A DNA stretch of 44,898 nucleotides, from assembly GCA_035266665.1 (NCBI GenBank), contig DATFMZ010000302.1:1-44898 (forward strand), in the 5' to 3' direction. The position numbers were made by a program, and so were the translations under genes. The notes beneath the pieces are model-generated. The model was given only the letters and a program-made list of their open reading frames with translations. It was not told where the DNA came from and ran no database searches. Shown here in pieces: positions 23,949 through 42,778 of this stretch (the stretch's first letter is position 1; every line of letters starts with the position of its first letter). The DNA comes from Gemmatimonadales bacterium. GTDB lineage: Bacteria > Gemmatimonadota > Gemmatimonadetes > Gemmatimonadales > GWC2-71-9.

Positions 23949-24829
23949 CGAGGCACCGACTCCAGCGCACGAAGTTTGTCCGGATTGAGCACCCGGTAGA
24001 CCGCGAGGATCTTCTCGCCGTCGGTATGAATGGCGGTGGCCGCGAACACACGCTCGCCGGCGTAGCTGATCCACGCCGGCTCTCCGTTGAGTCGCCCCAT
24101 CCGAGTGACCAGCATGCCGCGTGTCTTCCACGAGAAGCCGAGCACCAGGCGGGCCACGCGCATCGCGCCCCGGACGATCCGCGTCGCGGCACGCGTCTTC
24201 CCGCCGCCGTCACTTGCCCAGCTCGCATCCTCCGCGAGCAGCGCCACCACCCCTTCCTTGTCGTCCGCCTCGATGGCGGCGATGAAGTCGGTGAGGAGGC
24301 GCTCCTTGGACTCGAGGGAAACCTCGAAGCGCGGCTTGTCGCGGCGCACACGCTCGCGCGCGCGATGGACGATCTGCCGGCAGGCCGCCTCGCTCTTCGC
24401 GAGCGTTTCGGCGATTTCCGCGTAGCCGCAATCGAAGACGTCGTGCAGCAGCAGCGCCGCACGTTCTTCAGGCGCCAGCCGCTCGAGCATCAGCAGAAAG
24501 GCCATCGAGAGGTCGGACTCCAGCTCCGTGCGTTCGTCCGCGCGGCGCCACGGACCGGTGGGGAGCGGCTCCGGAAGCCAGGGCCCGAAGTAGGCGTCAC
24601 GTTCGGTCCGCGCCCGGCGGAGGCGGTCGATCGCGAGCCGGGTGATCACCGTGACGAGCCAGCCCTCGGGCTGGCGCAGGGACGACGTATCTGCTTCCTG
24701 CCACTTGAGATACGTCTCCTGCACGAGATCCTCCGCGTCCTCGATCGCACCGAGCATGCGATACGCGATCCCGAAGAGCCGGGGTCGGGCGCGCTCAAAG
24801 CGCGCGGTCTGATCGGCGATGGAAGCCAT
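23945..24829 (-). CDS. ECF41-group (SigJ-like) sigma-70 factor with fused SnoaL-like C-terminal domain (paralogue B)
   Basis: Sigma-2/sigma-4 regions, YFGPWLPEP linker, and C-terminal DGGGK and NPDKL motifs. In-frame ATGs at 24844, 24835 and 24829; I chose 24829 because the upstream promoter-like motif ends at 24846. The stop shares a CTAG tetranucleotide with the convergent monooxygenase stop. Confidence 0.88.
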   Translation of the reverse strand: MASIADQTARFERARPRLFGIAYRMLGAIEDAEDLVQETYLKWQEADTSSLRQPEGWLVTVITRLAIDRLRRARTERDAYFGPWLPEPLPTGPWRRADERTELESDLSMAFLLMLERLAPEERAALLLHDVFDCGYAEIAETLAKSEAACRQIVHRARERVRRDKPRFEVSLESKERLLTDFIAAIEADDKEGVVALLAEDASWASDGGGKTRAATRIVRGAMRVARLVLGFSWKTRGMLVTRMGRLNGEPAWISYAGERVFAATAIHTDGEKILAVYRVLNPDKLRALESVPR

Positions 24830-24845
24830 GGTCATTACGAACATA

Positions 24846-24871
24846 GACGGACGGGGGGCTGGTGTGTGACA
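24846..24871 (-). promoter_or_regulatory. ECF41-type promoter-like motif upstream of sigma paralogue B
   Basis: Minus strand reads TGTCACA-caccagccccccgtc-CGTC (N15). 16 nt lie between the tetramer and ATG 24829. Confidence 0.5.
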
Positions 24872-24905
24872 GGGAGTCGGCGGCGAGACCGACGGTCGGA
24901 ACGGC

Positions 24906-25385
24906 TCAGGCCTGTTGGCGGAGGTAGGCAGCCAACAGATCGAGCTCCTCAGCATACACGCGATCGAGCAGACCGCGGACGAGACGCCGTTCGACCCATC
25001 CGAGCGGACCCCGGCGTCTCGGGAAGGCGGTCGTGATGGTCACGCTGCATGCGTTCTCGCCGGGACGCGGCTCCACCAGGAAGGACGTCTCCACCTGCGC
25101 ATCGGGATAGGTCTCGACGAGCCGGCGTCCGGGCGCCGGCTCCGTCACGATCCCGCGCATCGTCCGGACGCGACCGGCGACCTTCGTCCGGACGATCAAC
25201 CGGGTTCCGGCACCGGACCCGCCTGCTTCCACCTCGAGACCCGCGAAGAAGCGTGGCGGCAGAATCTTCGGATGGGCCTCACGGTAGTCGGCGAACACGG
25301 CGTACACTCGCCCGGCCGACGCCTCGATGTGCCGGGTGACCGCGACGTCGTACGTCCGGCCGGCGCGTCGAGTGTCGGCGCTCAT
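24906..25385 (-). CDS. SRPBCC (polyketide cyclase/START-like) family protein
   Basis: ORF 24906..25496 trimmed to ATG 25385; about 159 aa. ...IEASAGRVYAVFADYREAHPKILP... pattern typical of SRPBCC ligand-binding proteins. Confidence 0.8.
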   Translation of the reverse strand: MSADTRRAGRTYDVAVTRHIEASAGRVYAVFADYREAHPKILPPRFFAGLEVEAGGSGAGTRLIVRTKVAGRVRTMRGIVTEPAPGRRLVETYPDAQVETSFLVEPRPGENACSVTITTAFPRRRGPLGWVERRLVRGLLDRVYAEELDLLAAYLRQQA

Positions 25386-26511: not shown

Positions 26512-27390
26512 CTAGGTCTCGGGAGGAAGTCCCGCGAGCTTGTCGGGATTGCCGACCGCGTAGACGGTCCGGATGCGGCCGCCTCGAATGTCGAAGATGA
26601 GCGCCGCTTGCGCGTGCGTACCGGCATAGGCGATGAACCCCGGCTGCCCGTTGATCGTGGTCGCACGAAGGCTCGTGCGCGCCGGGGCGAATCGCCGCGT
26701 CGTCCCGATGACGAATCGAGCCACGGCGTTCGGGCCATGAATCGGGTTCAGCGCGGCCCCTGGGATCCGGCCGCCGCCGTCGGCCCAGAGGGTGATGTCC
26801 TCCGCGAGGAGCGCGACGAGGCCGTCGACGTCTCCGGCCGCCGTGGCCCGGGTGAACTGCTCGACGAGCCGCGCGGCATGTGCCTGATCCGGCTCGAAGC
26901 GCGCGTGCGCCGTGCCCACGTGCTTCTTGGCGCGCGTCAGCAGCTGACGGCAGTTCGCCTCCGACTTGTCCACGATGCGGGCAATCTCGGCGTACTCGAA
27001 GGCGAAGACTTCGCGGAGCAGGAAGACGGCGCGTTCGATCGGGGAGAGCCGCTCCAGCAACACCAGGAACGCCATCGAGAGAGATTCGGCAAGCTCGACG
27101 GACCCCGACGGATCCGGGACGGTGTCGGTCACGAGCGGCTCCGGTAGCCAGGGCCCCACGTACGTTTCGCGTTGATGCCGAGCGGAGCGGAGCTGGTTGA
27201 TGGCGAGGCGCGTGACGATCGTGGTCAGATACGCCCGCGGCGCACGCACGTCCACCTCTGGCGCCTCCTGCCACCGGAGATAGGCGTCCTGGACCAGATC
27301 TTCCGCATCCATCACGCTCCCGAGCATCCGGTAGGCGATGGAGAAGAGCAACGGTCTGGTCGATGCGAAGACGTCAGCTCGAGTTTCCAT
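26512..27390 (-). CDS. ECF41-group (SigJ-like) sigma-70 factor with fused SnoaL-like C-terminal domain (paralogue A)
   Basis: ORF 26512..27501 trimmed to ATG 27390. Clearly alignable by eye with paralogue B (FSIAYRMLGS, YVGPWLPEP, LSMAFLVLLERLSP, DGGGR, NPDKL). Confidence 0.9.
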   Translation of the reverse strand: METRADVFASTRPLLFSIAYRMLGSVMDAEDLVQDAYLRWQEAPEVDVRAPRAYLTTIVTRLAINQLRSARHQRETYVGPWLPEPLVTDTVPDPSGSVELAESLSMAFLVLLERLSPIERAVFLLREVFAFEYAEIARIVDKSEANCRQLLTRAKKHVGTAHARFEPDQAHAARLVEQFTRATAAGDVDGLVALLAEDITLWADGGGRIPGAALNPIHGPNAVARFVIGTTRRFAPARTSLRATTINGQPGFIAYAGTHAQAALIFDIRGGRIRTVYAVGNPDKLAGLPPET

Positions 27391-27406
27391 ACGGTTCCGA
27401 ACGCTA

Positions 27407-27433
27407 GACAGACAATCCCTCGCATCTGTGACA
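27407..27433 (-). promoter_or_regulatory. ECF41-type promoter-like motif upstream of sigma paralogue A
   Basis: Minus strand reads TGTCACA-gatgcgagggattgtc-TGTC (N16). 16 nt lie between the tetramer and ATG 27390, the same geometry as at paralogue B. Confidence 0.5.
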
Positions 27434-27559
27434 TCTCGACGAGGGATGCCGGACCTCACGGGGGACCGCGGGCACACCGAGCGCAGGGATTCGGATCCCA
27501 TTCCCCCTGCCGGGGTGTATTACGGCTTTCCCGTCACCCCACCCCGCGCGGAGGAGTCC

Positions 27560-29245: not shown

Positions 29246-30874
29246 TCACGGAGCGGCGTTGAGGGCCTGCCGAACCGCGTACTCGACGTCTTCGATCGCC
29301 CACGGCTTGGGGATCACGCGGACGCCGCGCGGCACCAGGAACGTCTTCCCGGGTCGATCCTGGTATCCGCTTGACAGGAGAAACGGCACGGAAGGGCTCC
29401 GGTCGCGGATCGCGCGGTACACGTCCGCGCCGCTGAGGCCGGGCATCATCATGTCGGACATCACGAGATCGATCTCGCCCGCGTGCGCCTCGAAGAGCGC
29501 GATGCCCTTCGAGCCATCCTCGGCGATCAGTACGCGATAGCCCAGATAGTGCAGTACGCGCTGACCGGTGCGACGCAGGCTCGCGTCGTCCTCGATCAAG
29601 AGGATCGTTGCCCCGGTATGCGTAGGCGCCGTGTGAGTCGGTGCGGGGGGCTGCGCGCGGGGCATCTCCGTGGTTCGCGGGAAGTAGAGATGGACGGTCG
29701 TGCCGCGTCCCGGCGCGCTCTCCAGATCGAGGAATCCGTTCTGCTGCTTCATCAATCCGTAGACCATGGAGAGCCCGAGGCCGGAGCCCACGCCCGGAGG
29801 CTTGGTCGTGAAGAACGGCTCGAGCGCCCGGGTCCTGGTCTCTGCGTCCATTCCGTCGCCGCCGTCCTCGACCGAGATCCGAATGAAGTCGCCGGGCGAG
29901 AGCCAGGCCGGCCGCCGCGTATCCGCGCCGTCCACGTGCTCCGGCGTCACGATGACCCGTACGCCTCCGGACGTGAGCGTCGCGTCGCGCGCGTTGGTGG
30001 CGAGGTTCAACAGGATCTGTTCGACGGCGACGACGTCGCACAACGCGATGCACGCCGGGGCGATCTCGACATCCAACGCAACGTGCTCCGGGATCACCTG
30101 CCGCAGCATCGACTCCGCTCCGCGCGCGACGGCGCTCAGGTCGGTGGGCACGACGTCGAGACTCACGTTTCGGCTGAAGCCGAGGAGCTTGGCGATCATC
30201 GTCGCGCCGCGGCGCGCGGCGCCGCGCAGCTCCGCCAGCTCGGTCCGCGTCTCGGCATCTTCGGGATCGAGCGATGCCGCGATCAAGGAGGCATTCGCCA
30301 TGATGACCGAGAGCACGTTGTTGAAGTCGTGGGCGACACCCGCCGTCATCCGCCCTACCGCCTCCATCTTCTCCGCCTGCCGGCGGCGGGCTTCGAGAGC
30401 TTCGCGCCCGATGCCGCTCCCGTGAAAGTGCACCTCGATCGCGCGCACCCCCGGCGTATCGAGGCGGTTCACCAACTTCACGGCGAGCCACGGGAATTCG
30501 CACGTGGGATCCGGTGTCTTGATCGTCGCGGGGATCGCGACGTCCGGTTGCTCGAGACACCGACCGAACACGTCCTGCGCGTAGGCGACGTCGTCGGGCA
30601 CACAGAGGTCGAAGCCGAGCCGGCCGACGAGCTCGGCGGGAGGGTAGCCGAGGTAGCGCTCGGCAACGGCATTCGCATACCGGATGACGCCCGTGCCATC
30701 CACGAGGAGCATCCCCTCGTCGCTGTTTTCGACGAGCGTGTGAAAGTGAGCGTCGCGGGGTGTAGGGGAGCGCGGCGGTCGGCGGCGTGTGGCACCGGCG
30801 ACCGGTGGGAGAGGACTCGTGCGCGGGAAGCCATCCCGCCGGGGCGGCCCTCCGAATGGCCAGGGCCGATCCAT
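29246..30874 (-). CDS. hybrid sensor histidine kinase / response regulator (PAS-HisKA-HATPase-REC), cytoplasmic
   Basis: AAGGAG SD 7 nt before ATG 30874. PAS (LVENSDEGMLLVDGTG). H-box GVAHDFNNVLSVI. G-boxes DGGDGMD...GSGLGLSMVY. C-terminal REC (ILLIEDD...DLVMSDMMMPGLSG). Confidence 0.92.
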   Translation of the reverse strand: MDRPWPFGGPPRRDGFPRTSPLPPVAGATRRRPPRSPTPRDAHFHTLVENSDEGMLLVDGTGVIRYANAVAERYLGYPPAELVGRLGFDLCVPDDVAYAQDVFGRCLEQPDVAIPATIKTPDPTCEFPWLAVKLVNRLDTPGVRAIEVHFHGSGIGREALEARRRQAEKMEAVGRMTAGVAHDFNNVLSVIMANASLIAASLDPEDAETRTELAELRGAARRGATMIAKLLGFSRNVSLDVVPTDLSAVARGAESMLRQVIPEHVALDVEIAPACIALCDVVAVEQILLNLATNARDATLTSGGVRVIVTPEHVDGADTRRPAWLSPGDFIRISVEDGGDGMDAETRTRALEPFFTTKPPGVGSGLGLSMVYGLMKQQNGFLDLESAPGRGTTVHLYFPRTTEMPRAQPPAPTHTAPTHTGATILLIEDDASLRRTGQRVLHYLGYRVLIAEDGSKGIALFEAHAGEIDLVMSDMMMPGLSGADVYRAIRDRSPSVPFLLSSGYQDRPGKTFLVPRGVRVIPKPWAIEDVEYAVRQALNAAP

Positions 30875-30998
30875 AGGAACTCCTTCAATTGTGGACTACG
30901 GGTTCCAGGAGATGGTCCTAGTATGAGGGTGATGCACGCCGTGCGAAAGGGCCACCGGGGCCACAAGCCCATGATGCTCCCGGTTGGGTAGTGCGATC

Positions 30999-31028
30999 TT
31001 GGGACATCACCCCGCGAAATTGGGACAT
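30999..31028 (+). promoter_or_regulatory. phased direct repeat TTGGGACAT-N12-TTGGGACAT (candidate transcription-factor operator)
   Basis: Exact 9-mers at 30999-31007 and 31020-31028 (21-nt period). Each is preceded by GCGA-NN. Located in the 405-nt divergent region between kinase 1 (ATG 30874, minus) and the SBP gene. Confidence 0.6.
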
Positions 31029-31279
31029 TTCCGGCGTCGCGCAGCCACCGCGAGCCGCATCACGCGTTACGCATCGCGCACGCAGGCCGCGGGCGCTCAC
31101 CATTGTCCGGATCGCTTGTTGCGCAACGTCGTCAGCCATCACAACTTGGCAACGGACACCATGCGTTCGTCTAGTTGGCGCTCACGGCGCTGGATGCACC
31201 GCGGCGTGCGCGATGGTGTCATTCTGCATGAGTCGTGTCGTGGGCTCGTCCATCAAGGGGCCCGTCGGAGGACCGTCTC

Positions 31280-32095
31280 GTGAGGCGAAGTTGGATCGCG
31301 ATCACCTCCCTCACCGCCGTCGCACTGGGTACCTCCTCGTGCGGCTCTCGCCACTTGAGCACGCTCGACCGCGCGCGCGCCGCCGGCATCATTCGCGCCG
31401 CATATGCCCCTGAAGCCCCTTACGCGTACCGCGACAGCGCGGGCCGTGTCACGGGCCAAGCTCCCGAGCTGCTCCGCGAACTCACGCGTCGACTCGGCAT
31501 TCCGCACGTCGAGTTCGTGCAGACAGAATTCGCCCTGCTGATCCCGATGCTCCAATCCGGGAAGGTGGACGTGATCGCCTCGGGCATGTTCATAACCCCG
31601 AGACGGGCCACGCTCGTGGCGTTCAGCGATCCCACGCTATCCGTCTATGAGAATCTACTCGTTCCACGCGGCAACCCACGCCATCTGACCTCATACGCGA
31701 GCGTCGCGCGTGACACCACCGTCCATCTCGCCGTCCTGGCCGGCTCCGTCGAGGAGGCGACCGCACGAGCCGACGGTGTGGCAGCATCCCGCTTGCTCAT
31801 CGCGCCCGACGTGCGCACCGCAAACGCGGCATTCACGGCAGGCCAGGTGGACGCGCTCGCGATCTCGGCGCCGACCGCGCGCCGCGCGGCGGCCGGCCTC
31901 CAGGCAGACGTCGTTCCGCTTCCCGGGGGGCGCTCCTCGGCGGCGTTCGCGGTACGGCAGGACGACCGCCATTTCCTCGCGGCGCTGGATTCTACGCTTC
32001 GGATCGTGCTCGCGGCTCCGGCGTACGCCGGGTTCGTCGGTCGATTCGGGTTCCTCCCGGACGAGGTCCCGGGAGCGGCGGACTCCACGCCATGA
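31280..32095 (+). CDS. family-3 periplasmic solute-binding protein (amino-acid type), lipoprotein-like signal
   Basis: ORF 31235..32095. I favour GTG 31280 (GGAGG 8 nt upstream), giving MRRSWIAITSLTAVALGTSSC. SBP_bac_3-like ...IRAAYAPEAPYAYRDSAGRVTG...GKVDVIASGMFITPRR... ATG 31235 remains possible. Confidence 0.85.
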   Translation: MRRSWIAITSLTAVALGTSSCGSRHLSTLDRARAAGIIRAAYAPEAPYAYRDSAGRVTGQAPELLRELTRRLGIPHVEFVQTEFALLIPMLQSGKVDVIASGMFITPRRATLVAFSDPTLSVYENLLVPRGNPRHLTSYASVARDTTVHLAVLAGSVEEATARADGVAASRLLIAPDVRTANAAFTAGQVDALAISAPTARRAAAGLQADVVPLPGGRSSAAFAVRQDDRHFLAALDSTLRIVLAAPAYAGFVGRFGFLPDEVPGAADSTP

Positions 32096-34239
32096 CGCCA
32101 CCGTCACTTGGCGCGCTGCGGAGGGCGTTCGGCCACGTCGCTACCCAGTTGGCGCTCGCCGTCGTCGGGGTCGCGTCGGTGATTCTTCTCCTCGTCGGTG
32201 CGCGCGCGTCCCAACGTGCCCGCGAGCGCACGAGGAGTTTGGTGCAGGAGGTGGGTGATGCACGGCTCAATCTCACCAAGGCGTATCTCGTGATCGGTCG
32301 CGTGGCCGCCGGCGACTCGACCTTCTCGCTTCAGGATGCCGTCGCGTACGCCGAGAACGCCCATGCGGATCTGCGCGATCTGCTCGGAGGGACGGATGCT
32401 GGTCAACCTGCCGCGTCGCCGCTTGTCGCGGACGACACCCTCCGGGCCATGCTGGCCGCCCTCGATCAGCGCGCGCGCGCATTCGACAGTGTGGCGCATG
32501 CCGAGACCCCGGGCACGCCGATGCGCGCCATGGAAAACGTCGACCGGCGTGTGGCGTTCGGCGCCTTCGAGCGGTTGGCGGATACCATTGACGCACGGCT
32601 GGACGCTCGGTTGAACGCCCTCGACGCCGCCGCCGAGTGGGATGTCTTCCTGACCCTCGGGGCGTGGGTCGTGTTCCTCGTCGGAATGGGCGCCGTCGTC
32701 CATGCGCTCACACGCTCGCGGCGCCGCGCCGAGCTCCAGTTGCGACGGAACGAAGCGCGGTATCGCCTGCTGTCGTCCCTCGCCCCCGTGGGCATCTTCC
32801 GCGCGGACGCTGACGGCCGCATGCTCGACGTCAACGAGCGCTGCGTGCTCTTGGCGAGCTTCGCGAGCGACTCGCTGATCGGTCGCTCGTGGTTCGACGC
32901 CGTACATCCACAAGAACGGCAGCGCGTGCGCGAGGCGTGGCGCGACGCGCTCGAACATGACAAGGAGTTTCGCGTCGAGTGCCGGCTCGCCGGATCCGAT
33001 ACCCGTGAGCGCTGGGTCCTCGCGCGGGCCGCACGTGTGGACGGCGCCGGCGTGGTCGGGACACTCATCGATATCTCCGACCGCAAGCACGTCGAGCTCC
33101 AGCTGCAACAGGCGCAGAAGCTCGAATCCGTGGGCGAGCTGACGGGGGGGATCGCGCACGACTTCAACAATTTGCTCGCGGTGATCGCGACGAACGCGGA
33201 GCTCCTCGAGCCCGTCCTGCCGCCGAACGAGCCTGAGGCGGCGGCGATGCTGTACGACGTGCGCGAGGCGGTGAAGAGCGGCACCGAGCTGGTGCGCGGG
33301 CTCGTGGGATTCAGCCGCCGTGCCGATCTCCGACTCGAGGAGGTCCGGCTCGCAGACGTCATCCAGACCACGGGCAAACTCATGCGGCGGGTCGTGCCGG
33401 CCAGCATCACGGTCCGGGCAGACGACGTCGATGACACCGTGTACGTGCACGCGGACCCCGTTGCGATCCAGCAGATCCTCCTCAATCTCGCGACGAACGC
33501 GCGCGACGCGATGCCCAAGGGCGGCGTGCTCACGCTCGAGGTGCGGTGGCGGGACGCGGACGAGGGCTTCTTGCGTGAGCATCCGTGGGCTATTCCGGGA
33601 TGGTACGGCATCCTCGAGGTGCACGATACCGGCACGGGGATGAGCGAAGCCGTGCGGAGTCGCATCTTCGAGCCGTTCTACACGACGAAACCGGTCGGAC
33701 GCGGCACGGGGCTCGGGCTCGCGATGGTGTACGGACTCGTTCGCCAGCAGTTCGGGTTCGTCCACGTGTACAGCGAGTTGGGCCATGGCACGCGATTCGT
33801 GGTCGGCCTGCCGGCGAGCACCGCGACCGCGCAAGAGCGTCATACCCCGAGCGGACGCACGCACGCCTTCCGCTCGGGGTCCGAGCACGTGCTCGTGCTC
33901 GAGGACCAGGACAGCCTGCGCCGCGCCCTCTGCCGGACCCTCGAGCACCTCGGGTACCGCGTCACGGAGGCGCCGGATGGTGCGGCCGCGCTCGCGCTCC
34001 TCGAGGGCGAGCACGACATTGACCTCGTCATCGCCGACATCGTGATGCCCGGCATGGGTGGCATTGACGTGTTCGATCGCCTGGAAGGCCGCGCGGCACC
34101 ACCGTTCATCTTCACGAGCGGCTACACGGCACGGGACATCCAAGAGCGCGCAAAGTTGCCGGAGTACGCGGCGTTCCTTCGGAAACCGTGGACACTGCAG
34201 GATCTGAACGACCAGCTGCGCACCGTGCTCGACACGTGA
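32092..34239 (+). CDS. membrane hybrid sensor histidine kinase / response regulator (2 TM-periplasmic region-PAS-HisKA-HATPase-REC)
   Basis: ATGA overlap with the SBP gene. Two TM segments flank a sensor region of about 150 aa. H-box GGIAHDFNNLLAVI; HATPase G-boxes; C-terminal REC (VLVLEDQD...DLVIADIVMPGMGG). Confidence 0.92.
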   Translation: MTPPSLGALRRAFGHVATQLALAVVGVASVILLLVGARASQRARERTRSLVQEVGDARLNLTKAYLVIGRVAAGDSTFSLQDAVAYAENAHADLRDLLGGTDAGQPAASPLVADDTLRAMLAALDQRARAFDSVAHAETPGTPMRAMENVDRRVAFGAFERLADTIDARLDARLNALDAAAEWDVFLTLGAWVVFLVGMGAVVHALTRSRRRAELQLRRNEARYRLLSSLAPVGIFRADADGRMLDVNERCVLLASFASDSLIGRSWFDAVHPQERQRVREAWRDALEHDKEFRVECRLAGSDTRERWVLARAARVDGAGVVGTLIDISDRKHVELQLQQAQKLESVGELTGGIAHDFNNLLAVIATNAELLEPVLPPNEPEAAAMLYDVREAVKSGTELVRGLVGFSRRADLRLEEVRLADVIQTTGKLMRRVVPASITVRADDVDDTVYVHADPVAIQQILLNLATNARDAMPKGGVLTLEVRWRDADEGFLREHPWAIPGWYGILEVHDTGTGMSEAVRSRIFEPFYTTKPVGRGTGLGLAMVYGLVRQQFGFVHVYSELGHGTRFVVGLPASTATAQERHTPSGRTHAFRSGSEHVLVLEDQDSLRRALCRTLEHLGYRVTEAPDGAAALALLEGEHDIDLVIADIVMPGMGGIDVFDRLEGRAAPPFIFTSGYTARDIQERAKLPEYAAFLRKPWTLQDLNDQLRTVLDT

Positions 34240-34386
34240 GACCGAACCAATCCTGACGCGACGCCCTTGCCCCGCTGCACGTACGGTCGTAGTCTAGCGG
34301 CAGCAGAGGAGCGGCATACGAGCCACCCCACCGACGCGCGTCCCCACCCCCCCGACCAAAGTCGCTTTACCCGTGCCGCCACCATC

Positions 34387-36705
34387 ATGGCCTGGGTCTG
34401 CGTCGGCATCGGCGTCGCCGGGCTCATCGGCTGGGCGCTCGGCATCCCCACGCTCACCCGCGTGATGCCTGGGCTCGCCGCCATGAAGGCGAACACCGCG
34501 ATCGGCTTCATCCTGCTGGGCGTCGCGCTGGTCGTACGGGTGCGGACGCCGGATTCGCCCGCCACGGTGCGCCTCGTGCAGTGGATGGTCCTACCCGCGG
34601 TCCTGCTGGCCGCGCTCTCGTTGGCCGAGTACGTCACGGGACGCGCGTTCGGGGTGGACACGCTGTTTTTCGGGTTCTCCCAGGCGGCCGGGACCATGAC
34701 GTACCCGGGCCGCATGGCTCCGGGGACGGCAACGAGCTTCGTCTTCCTCGGCGCGATGATCGCGCTGCTCGAGCGGGATGCCGTGGATCTACTTGCCGTC
34801 GTACCGGCAGCCCTCGGCGTGGTGGGCACCGCGGGCGCCGTGGATACGCTCGTCTGGCCAGGGGCCGTGACGTCGTATTCCTCGATGGCCATGCAGACGG
34901 GCATCGGGATCACCCTCCTCGCCCTGGGCGCCTCGCTGTCCCGCCCCAACCGCGGCTACGCCGGCCTCCTGCGGCAGGCCACGCCGACGGGGTCGCTGGC
35001 CCGCGGCCTCCTGATCGGCGCGTTCGCCGTCCCGCTCGGCATCGGCTGGGCCCTGTACGATCTGGCGCGCGAAGACCTGATCTCCGGCACCTCGTACGCG
35101 GGGCTCACGATCATCGTGACAATCCTGGTGCTCGCCGTGCTGGCGCAGGTCCTCACCATCCGGCTGCACCGGGCCGAGTCCGCGCGTGCCACCGCCGATG
35201 CGCGGTTCTTCGAGCTGTTCGACTCGGCGCCCGTGGGACTCTTCCGCTCGCTTCCGGACGGCACCATCCTCGACGGCAACCCGGCGCTGGTGCACATCCT
35301 GGGGCTGCCGGATCGCGCCGAGCTGTTCGCGCACAATGCACGCGACTTCTACCTCGACGGGGCTGATCGCGACCGCTTCGTGAAACAGCTCATGACCTCG
35401 GGCACCGTCTCCGGCATGGAGTTTCGGTTCCAGCACGGCGACGGCTCGATTCGCTGGGTGGAGTCCCACGCGCATGCGGTGCGGAATCCGGATGGGACGT
35501 TCAACCACCTCACCGGATCGTTCATCGACATCACTGCACGAAAGCAGGCGGAGGCCCAGTTCCTCGCGGCGCAGCGCATGGAAGCGGTCGGCCAGCTCGC
35601 GGGCGGCGTGGCCCACGACTTCAACAACCTGCTCACCGTTCTCCACGCCACCGCCGAGTTCCTGCTCGAGGAGACACCGCCCGGCGACGAGCGCCGCGCC
35701 GATGTCGAGGAGATCCTGCGCACCACCAAGCGTGCCACCGCCCTCACGCGCCAGCTCCTCGCGTTCAGCCGGCGCCAGGTGTTCGAGACCCGCGTGCTGA
35801 ACCTGAACGACCAGGTGGCCGGGATGGACTCCCTGCTCCGACGCATCATCGGGGACGACGTGCGGCTCGTCACCGTGCGCGCCGGCGATCTCGGGAACGT
35901 GCGTGCCGATCCCGCACAGATCGAGCAGGTGATCGCCAATCTCGCGGTGAACGCGCGGGACGCGATGCCGGATGGCGGCACGCTCACCATCGAGACCGCC
36001 AACGTCACGCTCGATGCGCGACAAGCCCGTGGCCAGCTGGACGTGACACCGGGCGACTACGTCTCGCTCGCCGTCTCCGACACCGGCCACGGGATGCCGG
36101 CGGACGTCGCGGCGCACGTGTTCGAGCCATTCTTCACCACCAAGGGCATCGGGAAAGGCACGGGCCTCGGACTCGCCACGGTGTACGGGATCGTGCGACA
36201 GAGCGGTGGTTCGGTGAAGCTCGACACCGCGCTCGACGCCGGCACGACCTTCACGATCTATCTGCCGCGCGTGGCGGAAGCGGTCGACGCGGAGGAGGTG
36301 GGCATCGCGCGTCGAACGGCACCCCGCGCGAAGGCGGGCGAAACCGTCCTCGTCGTGGACGACAACCGCGACGTGCGCGGCACCACCGCGCGCATCCTCC
36401 GCACGCTCGGCTACGTCGTCGTGGAGGCGTCGGGACCGGAAGGATGGGAGGAGGCGAGCCGCGGACATGGCGGCACCATCCACCTCTTGGTGACCGATGT
36501 CGTGATGGCCGGACTGAGCGGCCCCGAACTCGCCGAGCGGTTCCGCGCGCGGCATGCCGACGCGCGCGTGCTCTTCACCTCAGGCTACGCCGACCGCGGC
36601 GTGGCGGGCGGCAGCGGCCTCCCCACGGGTGCCGCGTTCATCCAGAAGCCGTTCACCGTGGATGGACTCGGCCGGAAGGTGCACGAGGTGCTGCACGGGG
36701 GGTGA
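34387..36705 (+). CDS. polytopic membrane hybrid sensor histidine kinase / response regulator (multi-TM-PAS-HisKA-HATPase-REC)
   Basis: ORF 34267..36705 (TTG). Conservative start at ATG 34387 (MAWVCVGIGVAGLIGW...). N-terminal block of about 300 aa with 7-8 TM helices. H-box GGVAHDFNNLLTVL; REC (VLVVDDN...HLLVTDVVMAGLSG). Confidence 0.9.
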   Translation: MAWVCVGIGVAGLIGWALGIPTLTRVMPGLAAMKANTAIGFILLGVALVVRVRTPDSPATVRLVQWMVLPAVLLAALSLAEYVTGRAFGVDTLFFGFSQAAGTMTYPGRMAPGTATSFVFLGAMIALLERDAVDLLAVVPAALGVVGTAGAVDTLVWPGAVTSYSSMAMQTGIGITLLALGASLSRPNRGYAGLLRQATPTGSLARGLLIGAFAVPLGIGWALYDLAREDLISGTSYAGLTIIVTILVLAVLAQVLTIRLHRAESARATADARFFELFDSAPVGLFRSLPDGTILDGNPALVHILGLPDRAELFAHNARDFYLDGADRDRFVKQLMTSGTVSGMEFRFQHGDGSIRWVESHAHAVRNPDGTFNHLTGSFIDITARKQAEAQFLAAQRMEAVGQLAGGVAHDFNNLLTVLHATAEFLLEETPPGDERRADVEEILRTTKRATALTRQLLAFSRRQVFETRVLNLNDQVAGMDSLLRRIIGDDVRLVTVRAGDLGNVRADPAQIEQVIANLAVNARDAMPDGGTLTIETANVTLDARQARGQLDVTPGDYVSLAVSDTGHGMPADVAAHVFEPFFTTKGIGKGTGLGLATVYGIVRQSGGSVKLDTALDAGTTFTIYLPRVAEAVDAEEVGIARRTAPRAKAGETVLVVDDNRDVRGTTARILRTLGYVVVEASGPEGWEEASRGHGGTIHLLVTDVVMAGLSGPELAERFRARHADARVLFTSGYADRGVAGGSGLPTGAAFIQKPFTVDGLGRKVHEVLHGG

Positions 36706-36714
36706 TTGCGCGAC

Positions 36715-36733
36715 GCCGCCAACCACCGGCGGC
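36715..36733 (+). terminator. short GC hairpin 10 nt after the kinase 3 stop
   Basis: gccgcc 36715-20 / ggcggc 36728-33 with a 7-nt loop. No U-tract. Confidence 0.2.
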
Positions 36734-36804
36734 AACGCCATCTCGCGCTCGAGCGCGCACGATCCGACCCCGGCTCGCTGCGTTCCGCGCCGATCACCCG
36801 ACAA

Positions 36805-36834
36805 ATGTCCCAAAACCGACATACGATGTCCCAA
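36805..36834 (-). promoter_or_regulatory. second copy of the phased repeat (minus strand reads TTTGGGACAT-N11-TTTGGGACAT; same 21-nt period)
   Basis: Plus strand has ATGTCCCAA at 36805-36813 and 36826-36834. The spacer sequence is unrelated to the first site; only the 9-mers and their phasing are conserved. Located 100 nt after the kinase 3 stop and about 70-87 nt before the next gene. Confidence 0.6.
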
Positions 36835-36920
36835 AGTGTCACTATCGCATCGGCGCGTTCACTTGAACATTTGCACAAGTCCGCCCGCGAGGCCGACCCG
36901 ATGTGACCACACCACACCGT

Positions 36921-37496
36921 ATGTCGCTCTTCCTCACCTGCGCCGTGCTCGCGCACCCGCTGGTCCCCGGCGTCGCCGCCGCGCAGGGCGAGACCGCCAT
37001 CCTCGACAGCCTCGAACACGTGGCCCTCACTGCGACGGATGCCTCGGCGCGCGTACGCGCCGCCCTCGCGATCACCGACGCCGGACGGCTCCAGGTGGAC
37101 GCGGGTCCCACCGACACCGCACGGCGGCACCCACGGTATCCCGGCGTGGTCGCACGACTCGTGACGATCTATCGGAAATCCACCGACCCGGCCGTGCGCG
37201 ACTTGGTCGTGCAGTGGATGCCGGCGCTCGCCGATCGGCCTCGTGCCATCGCCTTCCTCGTGGAGGTTGCGAGCGAGACACCGATCCCACGCTCTGGGGG
37301 AGCATCACACGTGTTGCCGCCCGGACACGGCACCGCATCCAGCCGGGCGCACACGGCTATCTACGCGCTGACGCGAATGGGTGCGGCGGGACGCGCGGCG
37401 CTCGCCCGCCTGGACGTGAGCGGAAGCGTTCGTGATCCGGAAGCCAGAGCATATCTCGCGCGGCTGGCGAACGAGGGATACGAGGACCGCGAGTAG
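36921..37496 (+). CDS. hypothetical exported, Ala/Arg-rich helical (HEAT-like?) protein
   Basis: ORF 36903..37496 (GTG). ATG 36921 gives MSLFLTCAVLAHPLVPGVAAAQ, a signal-like N-terminus. No recognisable catalytic motif. Confidence 0.5.
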   Translation: MSLFLTCAVLAHPLVPGVAAAQGETAILDSLEHVALTATDASARVRAALAITDAGRLQVDAGPTDTARRHPRYPGVVARLVTIYRKSTDPAVRDLVVQWMPALADRPRAIAFLVEVASETPIPRSGGASHVLPPGHGTASSRAHTAIYALTRMGAAGRAALARLDVSGSVRDPEARAYLARLANEGYEDRE

Positions 37497-37576: not shown

Positions 37577-37618
37577 CCTGAATCCACCATGCGCAACGTC
37601 CCGAACCGGAGCGGACCG

Positions 37619-38578
37619 ATGCGTGCGTTGATGATAGCCGCCATGGCGGCCAGCCTGATTCCCCAGGCCTGCGCAAACGAGCCCACCGCCAACCCGGCAG
37701 GGCCAGCCACCAAGGACTCCACGGCCAAGGCCTCGGCCACCGCCACGCATATCCTGCTCACGGACGATCCCTTCCCGTATGACCGCGTCGCGCGGGTAGA
37801 CGTCTACGTGGTGAACGTCTCGGTTTCGCTCTCACCCGATACGAGCAGCACCGGGTCCTTCGTGACGGTCGCGACGCCGAACCGGCGCATCAATGTGCTC
37901 GCCCTCCAGGGGGGTGACACCGACGAGTTGGGTGCGCTGAAGCTTCCACCAGGAATCATCACGGCCGTCCGCCTGGTGCTCGATACCGATTCGTCGAGCA
38001 TCACGCTCGCGGACGGCCGCGTGCTCACGGGGAGCTCGTCGCCGGGAATCGCCTGGCAGTCGAGCGCGGGACGCCCGGTGCTCAACGCGCTGGTGCACGA
38101 GCAGATTGCGGTGCCCGATTCGGGCGGTCGGGTGGTAATCGTATTCGACGTCGGCGAGGCATTCATTCCCGTGAGCGTGCTCGACTCCTCGAGCACCGAC
38201 AGCGGCTTCGTGTTTTCGCCCTTCGTCACGGCGTTCGACGGAACACGCACGGGCGCGATCGCCGGCATCGTCCGCGGCACGAGCGACGGCGGTGCGGCCG
38301 TGACCGATGCATCCCTACAGCTCTATCTCGGGAATCCGACCAATCCGGAAAACACCTGGTGGCGGGTGGGAACGGCACGCTCGGATTCGGCCGGAACGTT
38401 TCGCTTCGCCTACGTTACGCCGAGCGCACACTGGACGAGCACGTCGGCGCACGCGACCGACACCTACATCCTGACGGTGGATCCGCCGAACGGCTCGGGA
38501 CTCGGCCGTGTGATCGTGCCGAATATCGAGGTCACGACGGGCAATACGACATCGGTCGGTATGGTGGTGCTGCCATAG
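37619..38578 (+). CDS. DUF4382-domain lipoprotein with C-terminal carboxypeptidase-regulatory-like beta-sandwich
   Basis: ORF 37589..38578. ATG 37619 gives MRALMIAAMAASLIPQAC. ILLTDDPFPYD...INVLALQGG...LPPGIITAVRLVL pattern typical of DUF4382. Confidence 0.78.
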   Translation: MRALMIAAMAASLIPQACANEPTANPAGPATKDSTAKASATATHILLTDDPFPYDRVARVDVYVVNVSVSLSPDTSSTGSFVTVATPNRRINVLALQGGDTDELGALKLPPGIITAVRLVLDTDSSSITLADGRVLTGSSSPGIAWQSSAGRPVLNALVHEQIAVPDSGGRVVIVFDVGEAFIPVSVLDSSSTDSGFVFSPFVTAFDGTRTGAIAGIVRGTSDGGAAVTDASLQLYLGNPTNPENTWWRVGTARSDSAGTFRFAYVTPSAHWTSTSAHATDTYILTVDPPNGSGLGRVIVPNIEVTTGNTTSVGMVVLP

Positions 38579-38605: not shown

Positions 38606-40156
38606 TCACCGCCCCCGGCTTCCCGTGAAGTCCCTGAGCGAGAATGCCCGCGTCAGCTCGCCGACCCGCTCGCGCTTCCACCAATTCCCGCTCGCTTTCC
38701 GCTCGGCGAAGCTCGTGAACTCGTACTTGTAGTAGATGAGCCGCACGTATTTGGGCGGCGCGGTAGAGAAGGGGCCGGGCGCCATGAGCCGCCGGACCGT
38801 CGGTGAGCCTTCGAGCAGCCGGTGCACGAGCGCGCCAAGGAGATCGCTCGAGGAACGCGGGTTGAGCGCCGCGAACCACATCTGCCAATCCAGCCGCGGC
38901 ATGTGCGGCTCGACGAACGCCGGCCGCCGGCCGAGCGGGCCCGGCTTCCAGCGGAAATCCACCGGCGTCCACGTACTGTCGTCGGCACTCGCCTCGACCG
39001 CGATCTCGCCGCGCTCGGTCGTCATCACCCGGAAGAGTCCATATCCGTTCACCGACCGGAACGGCCCGACGAGCTCCATCACCTGGTTCGTGAACGCAAG
39101 CACCCAGTTGTTCGCTCCCGGCACCGTCGCCACCATCTCGTGCACGAACGCCACGAAGCTCAGCACCCCGATGGCGATGCCCACGCCCGCGTTCACCGCC
39201 CGCTTCCGCCGCCCCTCCCTCTCCCTATCCCCTGCCACCCTGCCACTCTGCCCCCCTGCCGCTCTCTGCGGCATCAACCAACGAATGGCGTCGTCATCCA
39301 GCAACACCACCGCCAGCACGATCGTGAGCAGATTGAAGAACCCGTAGTTCCCCGTGGCCGCGATCAGAAGCTGGAACGCGATGATCGCCGCGCACCCGAT
39401 CCGCCTCGGCCACAGGTTCCGAAGAGGTAGCACGATGGCGATCGGTACGAGCAGCTCGGAGACGTAGACACCGATCACGGAGAGCTTCTGGAACCAGACG
39501 GGCATGTGATACGCGTACCACCCGATCCACGTCGGGAGCGGCTGCGTCTCGTAGTGGTAGGTGAGCGCCGTGAGATTCCGCCACGTGGGGTCACCCGAGA
39601 GGAGCTTCGTGATCCCAGAGAGGAAGATCACCTTGAAGAGCAGCAGCCAGAGGAGCCATCGGATCACCGGCGACGGCGCACGATCGCTCGCGAATCGCGG
39701 CCAGACCCGAAGCGGCGCGTAGAAGATGGCGAGGAACCCCGCTTCGAGCAGCAGCGCATCCCACTGGAAGCTCAGGAACTGTTGTCCCGCGACCGTGAGC
39801 GAGAGATAGAAGAGCCAGAGGAGCACGAGGATCGGCACCGGCGCGACGTCCGCGATCAACAGCACGCTCAGCGCCGCACCGCCCCAACAGAGAAAGCGAA
39901 GCATCGCGTCGCCGTGCGCGAGCCAGAGGAGGGTGGGATAGAAGTAGAACGCTTCGGCACCCAGTGCCGCACGCGCCCTCCCCAGGAGCGCACCGATCGG
40001 CAAGAGCCCCTCGTGGCCCACCAACCCGATCACCTGGACGCCCAACGAGACGAACGCGATGAGATAAACCACGCCGAGCAGGCGGAGAAAGAGCCAGCGC
40101 GAGAGCGAATACTCGACGCGGCGGGGCGACAGCCCCGCCGCGTCAACGGCCGACAC
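38606..40156 (-). CDS. lipase maturation factor (LMF1-like) family polytopic membrane protein
   Basis: C-terminal two-thirds of the 926-aa ORF 38606..41386. Upstream of about 40170 that frame is a shadow of the Gfo/Idh/MocA gene. In-frame GTG at 40156 gives (M)SAVDAAGLSPRRVEYSLSRWLFLRLLGVVYLIAFVSLGVQVIGLVG..., typical of bacterial LMF-family proteins. The start codon is uncertain. Confidence 0.8.
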   Translation of the reverse strand: MSAVDAAGLSPRRVEYSLSRWLFLRLLGVVYLIAFVSLGVQVIGLVGHEGLLPIGALLGRARAALGAEAFYFYPTLLWLAHGDAMLRFLCWGGAALSVLLIADVAPVPILVLLWLFYLSLTVAGQQFLSFQWDALLLEAGFLAIFYAPLRVWPRFASDRAPSPVIRWLLWLLLFKVIFLSGITKLLSGDPTWRNLTALTYHYETQPLPTWIGWYAYHMPVWFQKLSVIGVYVSELLVPIAIVLPLRNLWPRRIGCAAIIAFQLLIAATGNYGFFNLLTIVLAVVLLDDDAIRWLMPQRAAGGQSGRVAGDREREGRRKRAVNAGVGIAIGVLSFVAFVHEMVATVPGANNWVLAFTNQVMELVGPFRSVNGYGLFRVMTTERGEIAVEASADDSTWTPVDFRWKPGPLGRRPAFVEPHMPRLDWQMWFAALNPRSSSDLLGALVHRLLEGSPTVRRLMAPGPFSTAPPKYVRLIYYKYEFTSFAERKASGNWWKRERVGELTRAFSLRDFTGSRGR

Positions 40157-40170
40157 TGCCGCGCCGTTCG

Positions 40171-41517
40171 TCAGTACGACCACCCCTCCCGGTACGTCGG
40201 ATGGATGTACTCCGCCGGTACGGTCACGTTGGTCACGTTCTTGGTCTTGGGATCGAGCTCGAGCGTCCGCCCCATCCGCACCGCGAGCACGCCCAGAACC
40301 ACCATCTCCGTGAGCGGTCCCGCGTACTCGGCGAAGTTCGACCCGGCGGGCGTGCCGCCCTTGGCCGCACGCACGAACTCGGCGTACACGCCGCCCTCGA
40401 TCCGCGGATACTTCTGCGGCAACGGATGCGCGGTGACCTCCGCCTGCTTCTTGGGATCGAGCAGCATCGGCCCGTCGCCGTACGTGCCGGCGGTGAGCTT
40501 CCCGTCGTCGCCGATCCAGAGCTGCCCGCCGTCGTCGCTCGGCGGCCAGAGCTGATCGTCGGGCACCTCGGGCGGGCGCGGCGGGAAGAGACTCCCGTCG
40601 TGCCACACGCACTTCACCGGAGGACGCTTGCCCTTGGCTTCGAAGTAATAGGCGATCCGCTGCATCTTGGGCGCGGTCTCGGGATAGAGCTGGGTGGACT
40701 CCGGCACCACCTTGTTCGGGGTGCCCAGGTCGAGCGTCCAGAACGCCGCGTCCATGATGTGGCACGCCATGTCGCCGAGGGCGCCGGTTCCGAAATCCCA
40801 CCACCCGCGCCATTTGAACGGCTCGTACACGGGGTTGTACGGCCGCTCCTTCGCGGGCCCGAGCCAGAGGTTCCAGTCGAGCGTCGGCGGCACGTAGTAC
40901 TCCTGGAGCGGCCGGTCCATCGCCTGCGGCCAGATGGGGCGATTGGTCCAGAAATGCACCTCGCGCACCGTGCCGATCAATCCGGCCTCGACCCACTCGC
41001 GGATCAGCCGGATCCCCTCGTGGGTGTGGCCCTGATTGCCCATCTGCGTCGGGACTTTGTACTTCCGCGCCGCGTCCTCGAGCGCGCGGACCTCGCCGAG
41101 CGTCCGCGCGAGGGGCTTCTGGGTGCGCGTCGGTTTCCCCGCCTGCATCGCGAGCATCGAGGCCGCGGCGTGCGAGTGGTCGGGAATCGTCACCGTCACC
41201 GCGTCGATGTTCTTCGCCTCCTTGTCGAGCATCTCGCGGTAGTCCTTGTAGTGCTTCGCCTTCGGAAAGGCGCGATACGCACTCGCGGCGTTCTCGTCGT
41301 CGACGTCGCAGAGGATGTAGATGTTCTGTCCCTGGTCGGCGATTCCCTGCACGTCGTTCCGTCCCATGCCTCCGACGCCGATGCACGCGAAGTTCAGTGT
41401 GTCGCTCGGTGCCAAGTATCCGCGGCCGAGTACGTGCCGCGGCACGACGTGAAACGCCGCGCCCGCCGCGGCCATCGACTCCACGAAATCCCGCCGGTTG
41501 ATCTTGCGTTTGGTCAT
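40171..41517 (-). CDS. Tat-exported Gfo/Idh/MocA-family oxidoreductase
   Basis: ORF 40171..41673 trimmed to ATG 41517 (GAGGAG upstream). KINRRDFVESMAAAGAAF twin-arginine signal. FACIGVGGMGRND Rossmann motif; TQKPLA motif. Confidence 0.92.
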   Translation of the reverse strand: MTKRKINRRDFVESMAAAGAAFHVVPRHVLGRGYLAPSDTLNFACIGVGGMGRNDVQGIADQGQNIYILCDVDDENAASAYRAFPKAKHYKDYREMLDKEAKNIDAVTVTIPDHSHAAASMLAMQAGKPTRTQKPLARTLGEVRALEDAARKYKVPTQMGNQGHTHEGIRLIREWVEAGLIGTVREVHFWTNRPIWPQAMDRPLQEYYVPPTLDWNLWLGPAKERPYNPVYEPFKWRGWWDFGTGALGDMACHIMDAAFWTLDLGTPNKVVPESTQLYPETAPKMQRIAYYFEAKGKRPPVKCVWHDGSLFPPRPPEVPDDQLWPPSDDGGQLWIGDDGKLTAGTYGDGPMLLDPKKQAEVTAHPLPQKYPRIEGGVYAEFVRAAKGGTPAGSNFAEYAGPLTEMVVLGVLAVRMGRTLELDPKTKNVTNVTVPAEYIHPTYREGWSY

Positions 41518-41527
41518 GGGCTTCTCC

Positions 41528-42778
41528 TCAGGCAGCCTGCGGTGCGCCGGCCTGGCGGCGCATCGCGATCTTGGGACGGAAGAGCAGGAGGAACAGCACG
41601 AAGACGCCGAACGCGAGCGCGGCAGGCACCAGCCAGATGCTCCGCCAGTCGTGCACGGCGTTGGTGCAGACACCGTTGACCACCGCGCCCACGCAGCGGG
41701 TGTAGCGGTCGGCCACGGCGCCGGAAACGAACGCGCCGATGAAATATCCCACGCCGTTCGTCACGAAATTGATCAAGCCCTGCGCCGCACCGCGGATCTT
41801 GGCGCCGGCCTTTTCGTCAGTGTAGATCTGTCCGCTCACGAAGAAGAAATCGTAGCACATCCCGTGGAGCACGATGCCGAGATAGACGAGCCCCATCAGC
41901 GCCCCCGCGTTCCCGAACGCGAACGCGAGATAGCGCGTGCCCCATGCCGCCATGCCAACCAGCAGAATGCTCTTGATCCCGAAGCGCTTGAGCGCGAACG
42001 GCAGGATCAGAATGAAGCCGATCTCGAACACCTGCCCGAAGGTCTGGATGAACGCGGGATCCGGTGCATGGATGTCGTTGAGATAGAGGTTCGCGAAGGT
42101 GTAGTAGAACTGGAGCGGAATGCAGAGCAGGAACGAGAAGATCACGAAGATCAGAAACGGCTTGTCCTTGAGCATGCCGAGCGCGTCGAGCCCGAGCGCG
42201 TCACGGATGCTGAATGGCGCCCCCGCCGCCTTGGGCGGCGTATGCGGCAACACGAAGGAATAGAGCCCGAGCACGATGCTCGCCCCCGCCGCCACCTTGA
42301 GCGGCACGGCCAGCGCATCGGCGTGCAACACCAGCCCGATCAGCACCCCCGCCACGATCCAGCCGATCGTGCCGAGCACGCGGATCTTCGGGAATTCGCG
42401 CGCCGGATCGTCCACGTGGTGGAACGAGATCGAGTTCGTGAGCGAGAGCGTCGGCATGTAGCAGAGCGCATAGACGATCAGCATCACGTAGAACGCGGCG
42501 AAGCTGTGCAGCGTCGAGACGTACCACAGCACCACGCCGCCCAGCAGGTGCAGGAACGCCAGCAGCTTTTCCGTGGCGAAGAACCGATCGGCCACGACCC
42601 CCAGAAAGAACGGCGAGACCAGCGCCGCGATCGCGGTGGCCCCATACGCGAGACCGATCTGGCTCCCGGTGAAGTGCAGCGTCTTACTGAGGTATGTCCC
42701 CATCGTGACGAACCACGCCCCCCAGACGAAGTACTGGAGGAACATCATGGTCGAGAGTCGGAACTTCGTCCCGGTCAT
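41528..42778 (-). CDS. MFS transporter of the nucleoside:H+ symporter (Nuc_H_symport) family
   Basis: ORF 41528..43201 trimmed to ATG 42778. [23 protein letters not shown] start and 12 hydrophobic helices typical of this family. Confidence 0.88.

Follow-up and report, generated by a model that had tools for sequence, protein, structure and literature searches.

The window studied here is a stretch of 44,898 nucleotides (nt) of DNA from a Gemmatimonadales bacterium (contig DATFMZ010000302.1), and we focus on a 9-mer, TTGGGACAT, that lies in it as two phased pairs next to a group of hybrid histidine kinase genes. An exact search finds exactly four copies in the window, where 0.09 are expected by chance; none of 100 shuffles reached this number. 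Pair 1 (30999-31007 and 31020-31028) is on the plus strand and pair 2 (36805-36813 and 36826-36834) on the minus strand, both with a start-to-start period of 21 nt. This confirms what the original prediction, made from the letters of the window, had claimed, i.e., four exact copies in two pairs with 21-nt phasing. For pair 2, it gave the right-hand end of each minus-strand copy (36834 and 36813); the copies themselves are as described.

Both pairs are intergenic. Pair 1 separates hybrid histidine kinase 1 (minus strand) from a plus-strand unit of an SBP_bac_3 gene, kinase 2 and kinase 3; pair 2 is found between the 3' end of kinase 3 and a gene starting at 36921 (gene 36921). Relative to the adjacent genes that are read outward, i.e., kinase 1 and gene 36921, the sites face in the same orientation, as had been proposed. 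The distances given for them hold as well: 125 nt from the proximal 9-mer to the kinase 1 ATG at 30874, which is preceded by a Shine-Dalgarno sequence AAGGAG, and, for gene 36921, 87 nt (ATG at 36921) or 69 nt (GTG at 36903). Copies with at most two mismatches are not in excess in the window (49 observed vs. 65 expected), so the 9-mer is not a dispersed generic repeat; a generic repeat had been named as an argument against a binding site. Respective coordinates are collected in Table 1.

Table 1. Positions of the candidate operators, associated promoter elements and genes in the window; boxes of each candidate operator are listed in the direction of ATGTCCCAA.
Feature	Position	Strand	Description
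Candidate operator 1	30987-31028	-	ATGTCCCAA distal 31028-31020, 12-nt spacer, ATGTCCCAA proximal 31007-30999, then gatcgCACTACC
Conserved CTA of operator 1	30991-30989	-	matrix site
Operator 1 equivalent of the -10 hexamer	30962-30967	-	CTTGTG, without the conserved A and final T
Candidate operator 2	36805-36846	+	ATGTCCCAA distal 36805-36813, spacer AACCGACATACG, ATGTCCCAA proximal 36826-36834, then agtgtCACTATC
Conserved CTA of operator 2	36842-36844	+	matrix site
Candidate -10 hexamer of operator 2	36866-36871	+	AACATT, A at hexamer position 2, T at 6
Hybrid histidine kinase 1	29246-30874	-	Pfam: PAS, HisKA, HATPase_c, receiver; candidate target of operator 1
Gene 36921	36921-37496	+	191 amino acids, secreted-looking, no Pfam family; alternative GTG at 36903; candidate target of operator 2
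DUF4382 gene	37589-38578	+	Pfam; 92 nt downstream of gene 36921
SBP-kinase-kinase unit	31235-36705	+	Pfam; between the operators, reads away from operator 1, about 250 nt off
SBP_bac_3 gene	31235 (start)	+	Pfam; gene caller start 31280 (L296 gene calls)
Hybrid kinase 2	32092-34239	+	Pfam
Hybrid kinase 3	34267-36705	+	Pfam
ECF-type (extracytoplasmic function) sigma-factor gene	23945-24955	-	long C-terminal extension
ECF-type sigma-factor gene	26512-27501	-	long C-terminal extension

Conserved columns and promoter geometry

We built a 43-column matrix from 63 non-redundant Gemmatimonadota sites, the window sites being excluded. The comparison is based on about 100 related loci, and about 297 loci were fetched for searches of open reading frames (ORFs). 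Given this matrix, 36805-36846 (plus strand) scores 60.8 bits and 30987-31028 (minus strand) 39.4 bits, while the third-best site of the window reaches -5.1 bits and the best of 50 Markov shuffles -4.3 bits. Both window sites are real and highly significant.

The columns of the 63 sites read ATGTCCCAA, aAACGnCnTAnG, A(T/A)GTCCCAA and aaaCGc(a/c)CTA(a/t)C, followed by about 20 unconserved positions and then A62/T65/T66. That is, each unit of 21 base pairs (bp) is present twice and consists of the strong 9-mer and, about one helical turn further downstream, a weaker ..CG.C.(C)TA.. box. The spacers had been described as unrelated in sequence, which does not fully hold: across loci, the 12 nt after each 9-mer show a weak consensus aAACGnC(n)TAnc, such that the real unit is about 21 nt long, i.e., one strong plus one weak box. 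Within the window, CACTA(T/C)C after the proximal 9-mer is common to both sites, and both present the two units with two sub-boxes each that are looked for in a class II operator of the AraC/XylS type.

Further downstream, A is found at +62 in 57/63 sites, T at +65 in 48/63 and T at +66 in 58/63. These columns match the second, fifth and sixth positions of a -10 hexamer (nAnnTT) at +61 to +66. With a hexamer at this place, transcription would start near +73, the operator would span about -73 to -33, and the proximal CTA would coincide with the -35 position. TATAGT- and TATACT-like hexamers are observed at the same distance in Burkholderiales and Verrucomicrobiota.

For operator 2, the hexamer AACATT is placed exactly on the conserved columns +61 to +66, with an inferred transcription start near 36878. 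No sigma-70 consensus promoter was found in the operator 2 region. The product of gene 36921 has five homologues with 64-88% identity, and all four homologue loci looked up (plus a second copy of one of them) keep operator 2 upstream, in one case as far as the short contig reaches. In the orthologous loci (65-88% identity), operator 2 and ACATTT are invariant and the flanks diverge. Locus L286 keeps both site 2 and gene 36921 next to other upstream neighbours and has no adjoining kinase cluster; site 2 thus goes with gene 36921 rather than with the kinase cluster, and the inverted layout of the two window sites only reflects two targets on opposite strands. The DUF4382 gene is syntenic with gene 36921 in L286 and L282 (the latter being another assembly of the same organism), and it is probably part of the same transcript. 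A PEP-CTERM idea for the secreted targets was dropped, the gene 36921 product being without such a C-terminus.

Other readings of the repeat were rejected. ECF-sigma, sigma-54, sigma-32 and leaderless promoters do not fit, given that the 9-mers are identical and 21 nt apart, that no -10-type A/T pattern is found at the right distance from the regulator ATG, and that the AraC association described below explains the data. A known RNA family was discarded as well: a search of the whole window gave no Rfam family above threshold, and transcription would start downstream of the repeat.

The repeat in other genomes

We scanned one genome per species (185,579 species, 596 Gb) for exact matches of TTGGGACAT-N12-TTGGGACAT. 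At least 115 loci were found, where a rough estimate based on the 18 specified bases gives about 17 chance matches. Among the matches listed, two classes can be told apart. The first comprises true tandem arrays, i.e., repeats of the complete 21-bp unit (Diplocloster, some Bacteroidota, Planctomycetes); the second has unrelated spacers and is observed in Gemmatimonadota (15 loci), Verrucomicrobiota, Cytophagales and Burkholderiales. The Gemmatimonadota matches share the layout ATGTCCCAA-N12-ATGTCCCAA, 5 nt, C(A/C)CTA(T/C), and then, 45-135 nt further on, a ribosome-binding site and a gene start. The respective pattern ATGTCCCAA-N12-ATGTCCCAA-N5-CNCTA occurs at 9 loci in the 185,579 species genomes, all of them Gemmatimonadota, and 11 further matches come from metagenomes, 10/11 with the same layout and composition. 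The window itself is absent from both scanned collections (genomes and metagenomes).

Three other phyla share the 9-mer, the 21-nt phasing and the distance to a -10-like hexamer. Identical 9-mer pairs are found in Burkholderiales (L026, L046, L112, L031, L075, L021, L059, L092, L013), Cytophagales (L006, L017, L020, L090, L097, L038) and Verrucomicrobiota (L014, L018, L078, L100, L108, L069, L062). Iterated searches over six-frame ORFs identify genes with an AraC-type helix-turn-helix (HTH) domain at the repeat in three phyla and more than 60 loci, and none among the ORFs of the window. In Burkholderiales, this gene encodes a 342-amino-acid regulator (Arabinose_bd plus HTH_18) that is transcribed divergently and whose start codon overlaps the distal 9-mer. 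The Cytophagales counterparts are hybrid two-component proteins whose C-terminus is AraC-type; they end some 80 nt upstream of the repeat. With sensor parts as different as these, the DNA-binding module and its operator seem transferable between protein architectures. The Burkholderiales regulators adjoin TctC or BKACE genes.

Among the matches listed in a literature search for the 9-mer (15 of 434), none was a bacterial paper; they dealt with p53 response elements and other non-bacterial subjects.

A regulator family at the repeat

In Gemmatimonadota, a protein of about 266 amino acids starts 2-3 nt from the repeat (L057, L086, L089). For two loci (L096, L111), this regulator follows a gene for a tetratricopeptide repeat (TPR) protein and the repeat precedes the TPR gene. 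A profile search with the regulator alignment yields 75 loci, all Gemmatimonadota, and nearly all of them have the phased repeat directly upstream with the regulator ATG or GTG 2-3 nt after it. The shared layout is gTTAGTGCGTTT-TTGGGAC(A/T)T-cataNgtCGTTT-TTGGGACAT-tc-ATG. At least 986 relatives are present in the protein database, named at most 'AraC-like DNA-binding protein'.

The 9-mer co-varies with the first recognition helix (helix 3) of the regulator clades. Helix 3 reads MDRRTC(L/A)RWF where the 9-mer is TTGGGACAT, (K/Q)RRT(C/Y)ERWF where it is TTGCGACA, and MTRR(N/S)LDRWL where it is TTAGGACA. The phasing is 21 nt throughout, with 22 nt at one locus.

Domain searches and a structure model agree on the build of the protein. 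Pfam reports HTH_18 (E=7e-11) and, for one member only, a marginal Response_reg match (E=0.05). In a profile search of solved structures, the AdpA DNA-binding domain is closest (E=2e-10), followed by VirS, a hybrid two-component protein and other AraC-type domains; residues 5-120 give weak receiver-like matches to 4dad (E=0.001), FleR and HupR. An AlphaFold2 model (predicted local distance difference test score, pLDDT, 89.9; predicted template modelling score, pTM, 0.83) comprises five beta-alpha units (residues 2-118, pLDDT >88), a helical linker and a seven-helix DNA-binding domain. When compared with Foldseek, using the TM-score normalised to the target (TMt), the N-domain retrieves the receivers HupR (TMt 0.74-0.77), DctD, PhoB and MtrA (TMt 0.70-0.77 over all receivers), and the C-domain retrieves the AraC DNA-binding domains 3oio (0.78) and GadX (0.77). 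The modelled protein is of a Gemmatimonadota-specific AraC/XylS kind, i.e., a predicted receiver-fold N-domain, highly diverged in sequence, plus an HTH_18 domain with two HTH motifs. Receiver pocket positions were assigned by eye from where they fall in the model. Beta-3 ends in D49 (conserved to at least 90%) and beta-4 in T77, in the places of the receiver Asp and Thr; the last residues of beta-1 are Ala-Ala, and beta-5 is not followed by a Lys. This pattern suggests an atypical or pseudo-receiver.

We examined 15 orphan sites, i.e., 13 loci plus the two of the window. Most of them have a gene start 44-135 nt downstream in the direction of ATGTCCCAA, and only 2/15 have one in the opposite direction, about 250 nt off. 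Putative targets in other genomes include a CheY-like protein, a PAS protein, Cas3 and secreted proteins without known function. Regulator genes were also found in 6/7 genomes with orphan sites, on another contig or elsewhere on the chromosome. The Cas3 case (HD nuclease plus helicase) is from Gemmatimonadota LQ108M_Bin_24 (L080, 4337-7125), where one exact operator is directly upstream of the gene, which hints at a CRISPR-Cas interference gene in the same regulon in that genome.

The surroundings of the regulator gene show some recurrent features. In several genomes it is followed by genes for a single-domain CheY-like receiver, a MerR-like protein, LemA and an M48 peptidase (L127, 3798-6510; L149, 1417-2688 and 4949-6570; L163, 1418-2731; L176, L177, L179). 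Regulator loci (L117-L173) also have a divergent gene, located roughly 75-110 nt downstream of the operator, whose product is a small peptide of 33-104 amino acids that resembles a lipoprotein. The peptide starts with MSRRxR and contains a lipobox (AAC or TAC), a cysteine pair and a hydrophobic stretch; 2-10 tandem units of 6-8 residues, each ending in (Q/N)GSGT, are found at the C-terminus, e.g., SGYNGSGT eight times (examples are L144, L147, L122 and L164). Such a product could serve as precursor of a signal peptide that is secreted. A TPR protein of 413-438 amino acids adjoins the peptide gene; in a distant clade, it comes directly after the operator and before the regulator.

Interpretation and alternatives

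That the repeat is a protein-binding site, as the original prediction had put it, is supported by the matrix scores, the conservation and the co-location with a regulator gene. We consider it likely that each pair is an operator of two tandem ~21-bp sites for monomers of one regulator, i.e., the receiver-fold/AraC-type protein specific to Gemmatimonadota, encoded elsewhere in the genome and acting by XylS-like activation. The strong box (the 9-mer) and the weaker box would be contacted by the two HTH motifs of one monomer in adjacent major grooves, and two monomers would sit on the same DNA face, two helical turns apart. The proximal unit would end at the -35 position, with the -10-like nAnnTT about 20 nt later. 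The bound regulator would then most likely activate transcription in the direction of ATGTCCCAA, as a class II activator like XylS at Pm. Under this assumption, the promoter of operator 2 would drive gene 36921, probably together with the DUF4382 gene, and that of operator 1 would face hybrid kinase 1.

The closest parallel is XylS at Pm, where two 15-bp direct repeats, each made of box A, six nt and box B, are about 21 bp apart and their boxes are read by the two HTH motifs of one monomer (PMC5481539). Both systems have two direct repeats at about 21 bp and 5' and 3' boxes about one helical turn apart; the proximal repeat here would also reach the -35 position of a promoter with no good -35, as at Pm. 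Differences are seen in the boxes (ATGTCCCAA...CTA here vs. TGCA-N6-GGNTA for XylS), in the N-domain (receiver fold here vs. the effector-binding domain of XylS), in the restriction of the family to Gemmatimonadota, and in that binding is here predicted from sequence. The Pm operator spans -70 to -35, close to the predicted -73 to -33 here. For AraC at araI1-I2, the direct-repeat half-sites are 21 bp apart, the proximal one overlaps the -35, and the regulator gene is divergent with a shared control region. The 21-bp direct repeats, a predicted -35 overlap and a divergent regulator gene are found here as well, while there is no evidence here of a distant looping site, the sensor domain is another one, and the divergent gene is a small secreted peptide and not a catabolic operon as in araC-araBAD. 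For hybrid two-component systems of Bacteroides, direct repeats have been predicted as motifs, spaced by 21 bp on average and with no conservation of the spacer (PMC3878776). These repeats match the ones here, and hybrid systems of Cytophagales adjoin the identical 9-mer pair, whereas the Gemmatimonadota protein is a stand-alone one of 266 amino acids. Compared to AraC-type response regulators, its receiver barely matches Response_reg and, by position in the model, appears to be without the acidic pair and the lysine.

Several points weigh against the proposed activation by this regulator. Operator 1 fits less well than operator 2 (39 vs. 61 bits), with CTTGTG at the -10 position, and no sigma-70-like promoter was found in 30800-31300; if it were a promoter of the same type, transcription would start near 30955 (minus strand). 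The only relatives retrievable for it are 99% identical and hence uninformative on conservation. Conservation in orthologous intergenic regions, which had been suggested as a check, is seen for site 2 (gene 36921 orthologues). Homologues of kinase 1 at 58-62% identity are without site 1. These homologues have other N-termini and other neighbours, and given the missing site they are probably paralogues. The best match for an orthologue of hybrid kinase 2 has 37% identity, and no syntenic loci were found for it. The regulator gene lies outside the window and this genome is absent from the scanned collection, so its presence in this organism is inferred only; public contigs of this organism do not reach the length of the window. 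Furthermore, the regulator's start codon abuts the distal 9-mer, which fits self-repression, and the protein may be a repressor at some sites. Finally, the regulator operon encodes further candidate proteins, which co-location cannot separate.

A kinase 55% identical to kinase 1 is found in L295 (GCA_040961345.1). About 100 nt upstream of it, ATGTCCCCA occurs twice with 22-nt phasing, followed by CGCCCTATC. This variant operator is present at 5862-5903 and at about 8666-8707, the second copy being upstream of small ORFs, which suggests a further specificity variant of the family.

The points on repression lead to a rather improbable variant, in which the same AraC-type regulator binds the pairs and is not a simple activator. 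It would either repress the outward genes, or operator 1 would mainly control the SBP-kinase 2-kinase 3 unit in the direction of TTGGGACAT. The regulator start codon 2-3 nt from the repeat at its own gene suggests auto-repression; operator 1 is without the conserved -10 positions on the kinase 1 side; and the SBP gene start, with a ribosome-binding site, is 251 nt from operator 1 in the other direction. On the other hand, the position of gene starts at most of the 15 orphan sites argues for the direction of ATGTCCCAA, and a -10-like element at fixed distance without a -35 consensus is the signature of an activator-dependent promoter.

It is quite unlikely that a co-travelling protein binds the repeat, i.e., the MerR-like or CheY-like product of the regulator operon, even though in several genomes the operon encodes the single-domain receiver, the MerR-like protein, LemA and the M48 peptidase together with the regulator. 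The same repeat adjoins AraC-type genes with quite different neighbours in Burkholderiales and Cytophagales, and the 9-mer co-varies with helix 3 of the AraC domain. MerR proteins, moreover, bind dyad sites within the -35/-10 spacer and not direct repeats with 21-bp phasing.

The original prediction had assigned the pairs to a LytTR-type response regulator of the AgrA, ComE and AlgR class, to which we give hardly any credence. The operators of this class (AgrA P2/P3, ComE, YpdB) resemble the pairs in their 9-bp direct repeats, the 12-13-nt spacer, the facing promoters, and targets that include kinases and, as in pheromone circuits and in relatives of the window, small secreted peptides. Such repeats are not discriminating, because AraC-type regulators have the same phasing, and the domain encoded at the sites in more than 60 loci is AraC-type. 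A jackhmmer search with the AgrA LytTR domain found no LytTR ORF among ORFs of at least 60 amino acids in the window and the ~297 loci, with the limited sensitivity of a single seed. TTGGGACAT is also without the GTT core of what we take to be the LytTR consensus, which is a weak comparison. The sites here are closer to the promoter: the proximal AgrA repeat is centred near -60 (PMC4227749), while the proximal unit here reaches about -33. Regarding regulators within the window, the claim that no DNA-binding regulator is encoded holds for AraC-type and LytTR ORFs and fails for the two ECF-type sigma-factor genes, which do encode DNA-binding regulators.

An invertible 5.8-kb segment with the pairs as its recombinase sites was raised as a further option, since a three-gene unit lies between inverted copies of one short repeat (and the fim switch reportedly uses inverted repeats as short as 9 bp). 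This is about as improbable: the inverted similarity is limited to 29 nt (72%), a level that many chance pairs of this GC-rich region attain as well; L286 has no second site in the 12 kb fetched; the repeat occurs singly in many genomes; Pfam reports no recombinase, integrase or invertase family among the window ORFs judged likely genes; and four assemblies of different samples (ENA ERZ27257098, JGI 3300036921, SRR9709000, JGI 3300031653) show the window orientation at the junction each covers.

Coming back to the AraC-type regulator, its being the centre of a peptide-signalling circuit widespread in Gemmatimonadota is a speculative extension, which we rate as doubtful. Here, the operator would drive the divergent (Q/N)GSGT lipoprotein-like precursor gene, and the TPR protein, the CheY-like receiver, LemA and the M48 protease could sense, relay or process the peptide. 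If this were true, the hybrid kinase and the secreted protein of the window would be outputs or feedback arms of the circuit.

Our searches turned up almost no knowledge of how transcription is regulated in Gemmatimonadota. The analysis provides an operator model of about 60 bits, a candidate regulator family (at least 986 members), the promoter geometry and a first list of putative targets, i.e., hybrid kinases, a CheY-like protein, a PAS protein, Cas3 and small secreted peptides. It also calls for caution: a 9-mer with 12-nt spacer is not diagnostic of LytTR, as receiver-AraC regulators share the phasing.

Further observations concern other repeats and genes. Diplocloster hominis, D. agilis and D. 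modestus carry dozens of true 21-bp tandem arrays of TTGGGACATGTCCATTYCRGT with 2-5 copies, often as inverted pairs (L002, L008, L010, L030, L035, L040, L041, L070, L095, L103 and about 20 more); these form a dispersed repeat family that shares the 9-mer by happenstance. Within the window, the ECF-type sigma-factor genes are located among DoxX-like and polyketide-cyclase-like genes, and the C-terminal extension of one of them is a SnoaL_2 domain. The ORF at 38606-41386 (minus strand) has lipase-maturation-factor (LMF1) domains in its C-terminal part only. A GFO/IDH/MocA oxidoreductase gene (40171-41673, minus strand), read in another frame, overlaps with the 5' part of this ORF. Public gene calls split the region 38606-41673 into an LMF1-like gene of 525 amino acids and an oxidoreductase gene of 448 amino acids.

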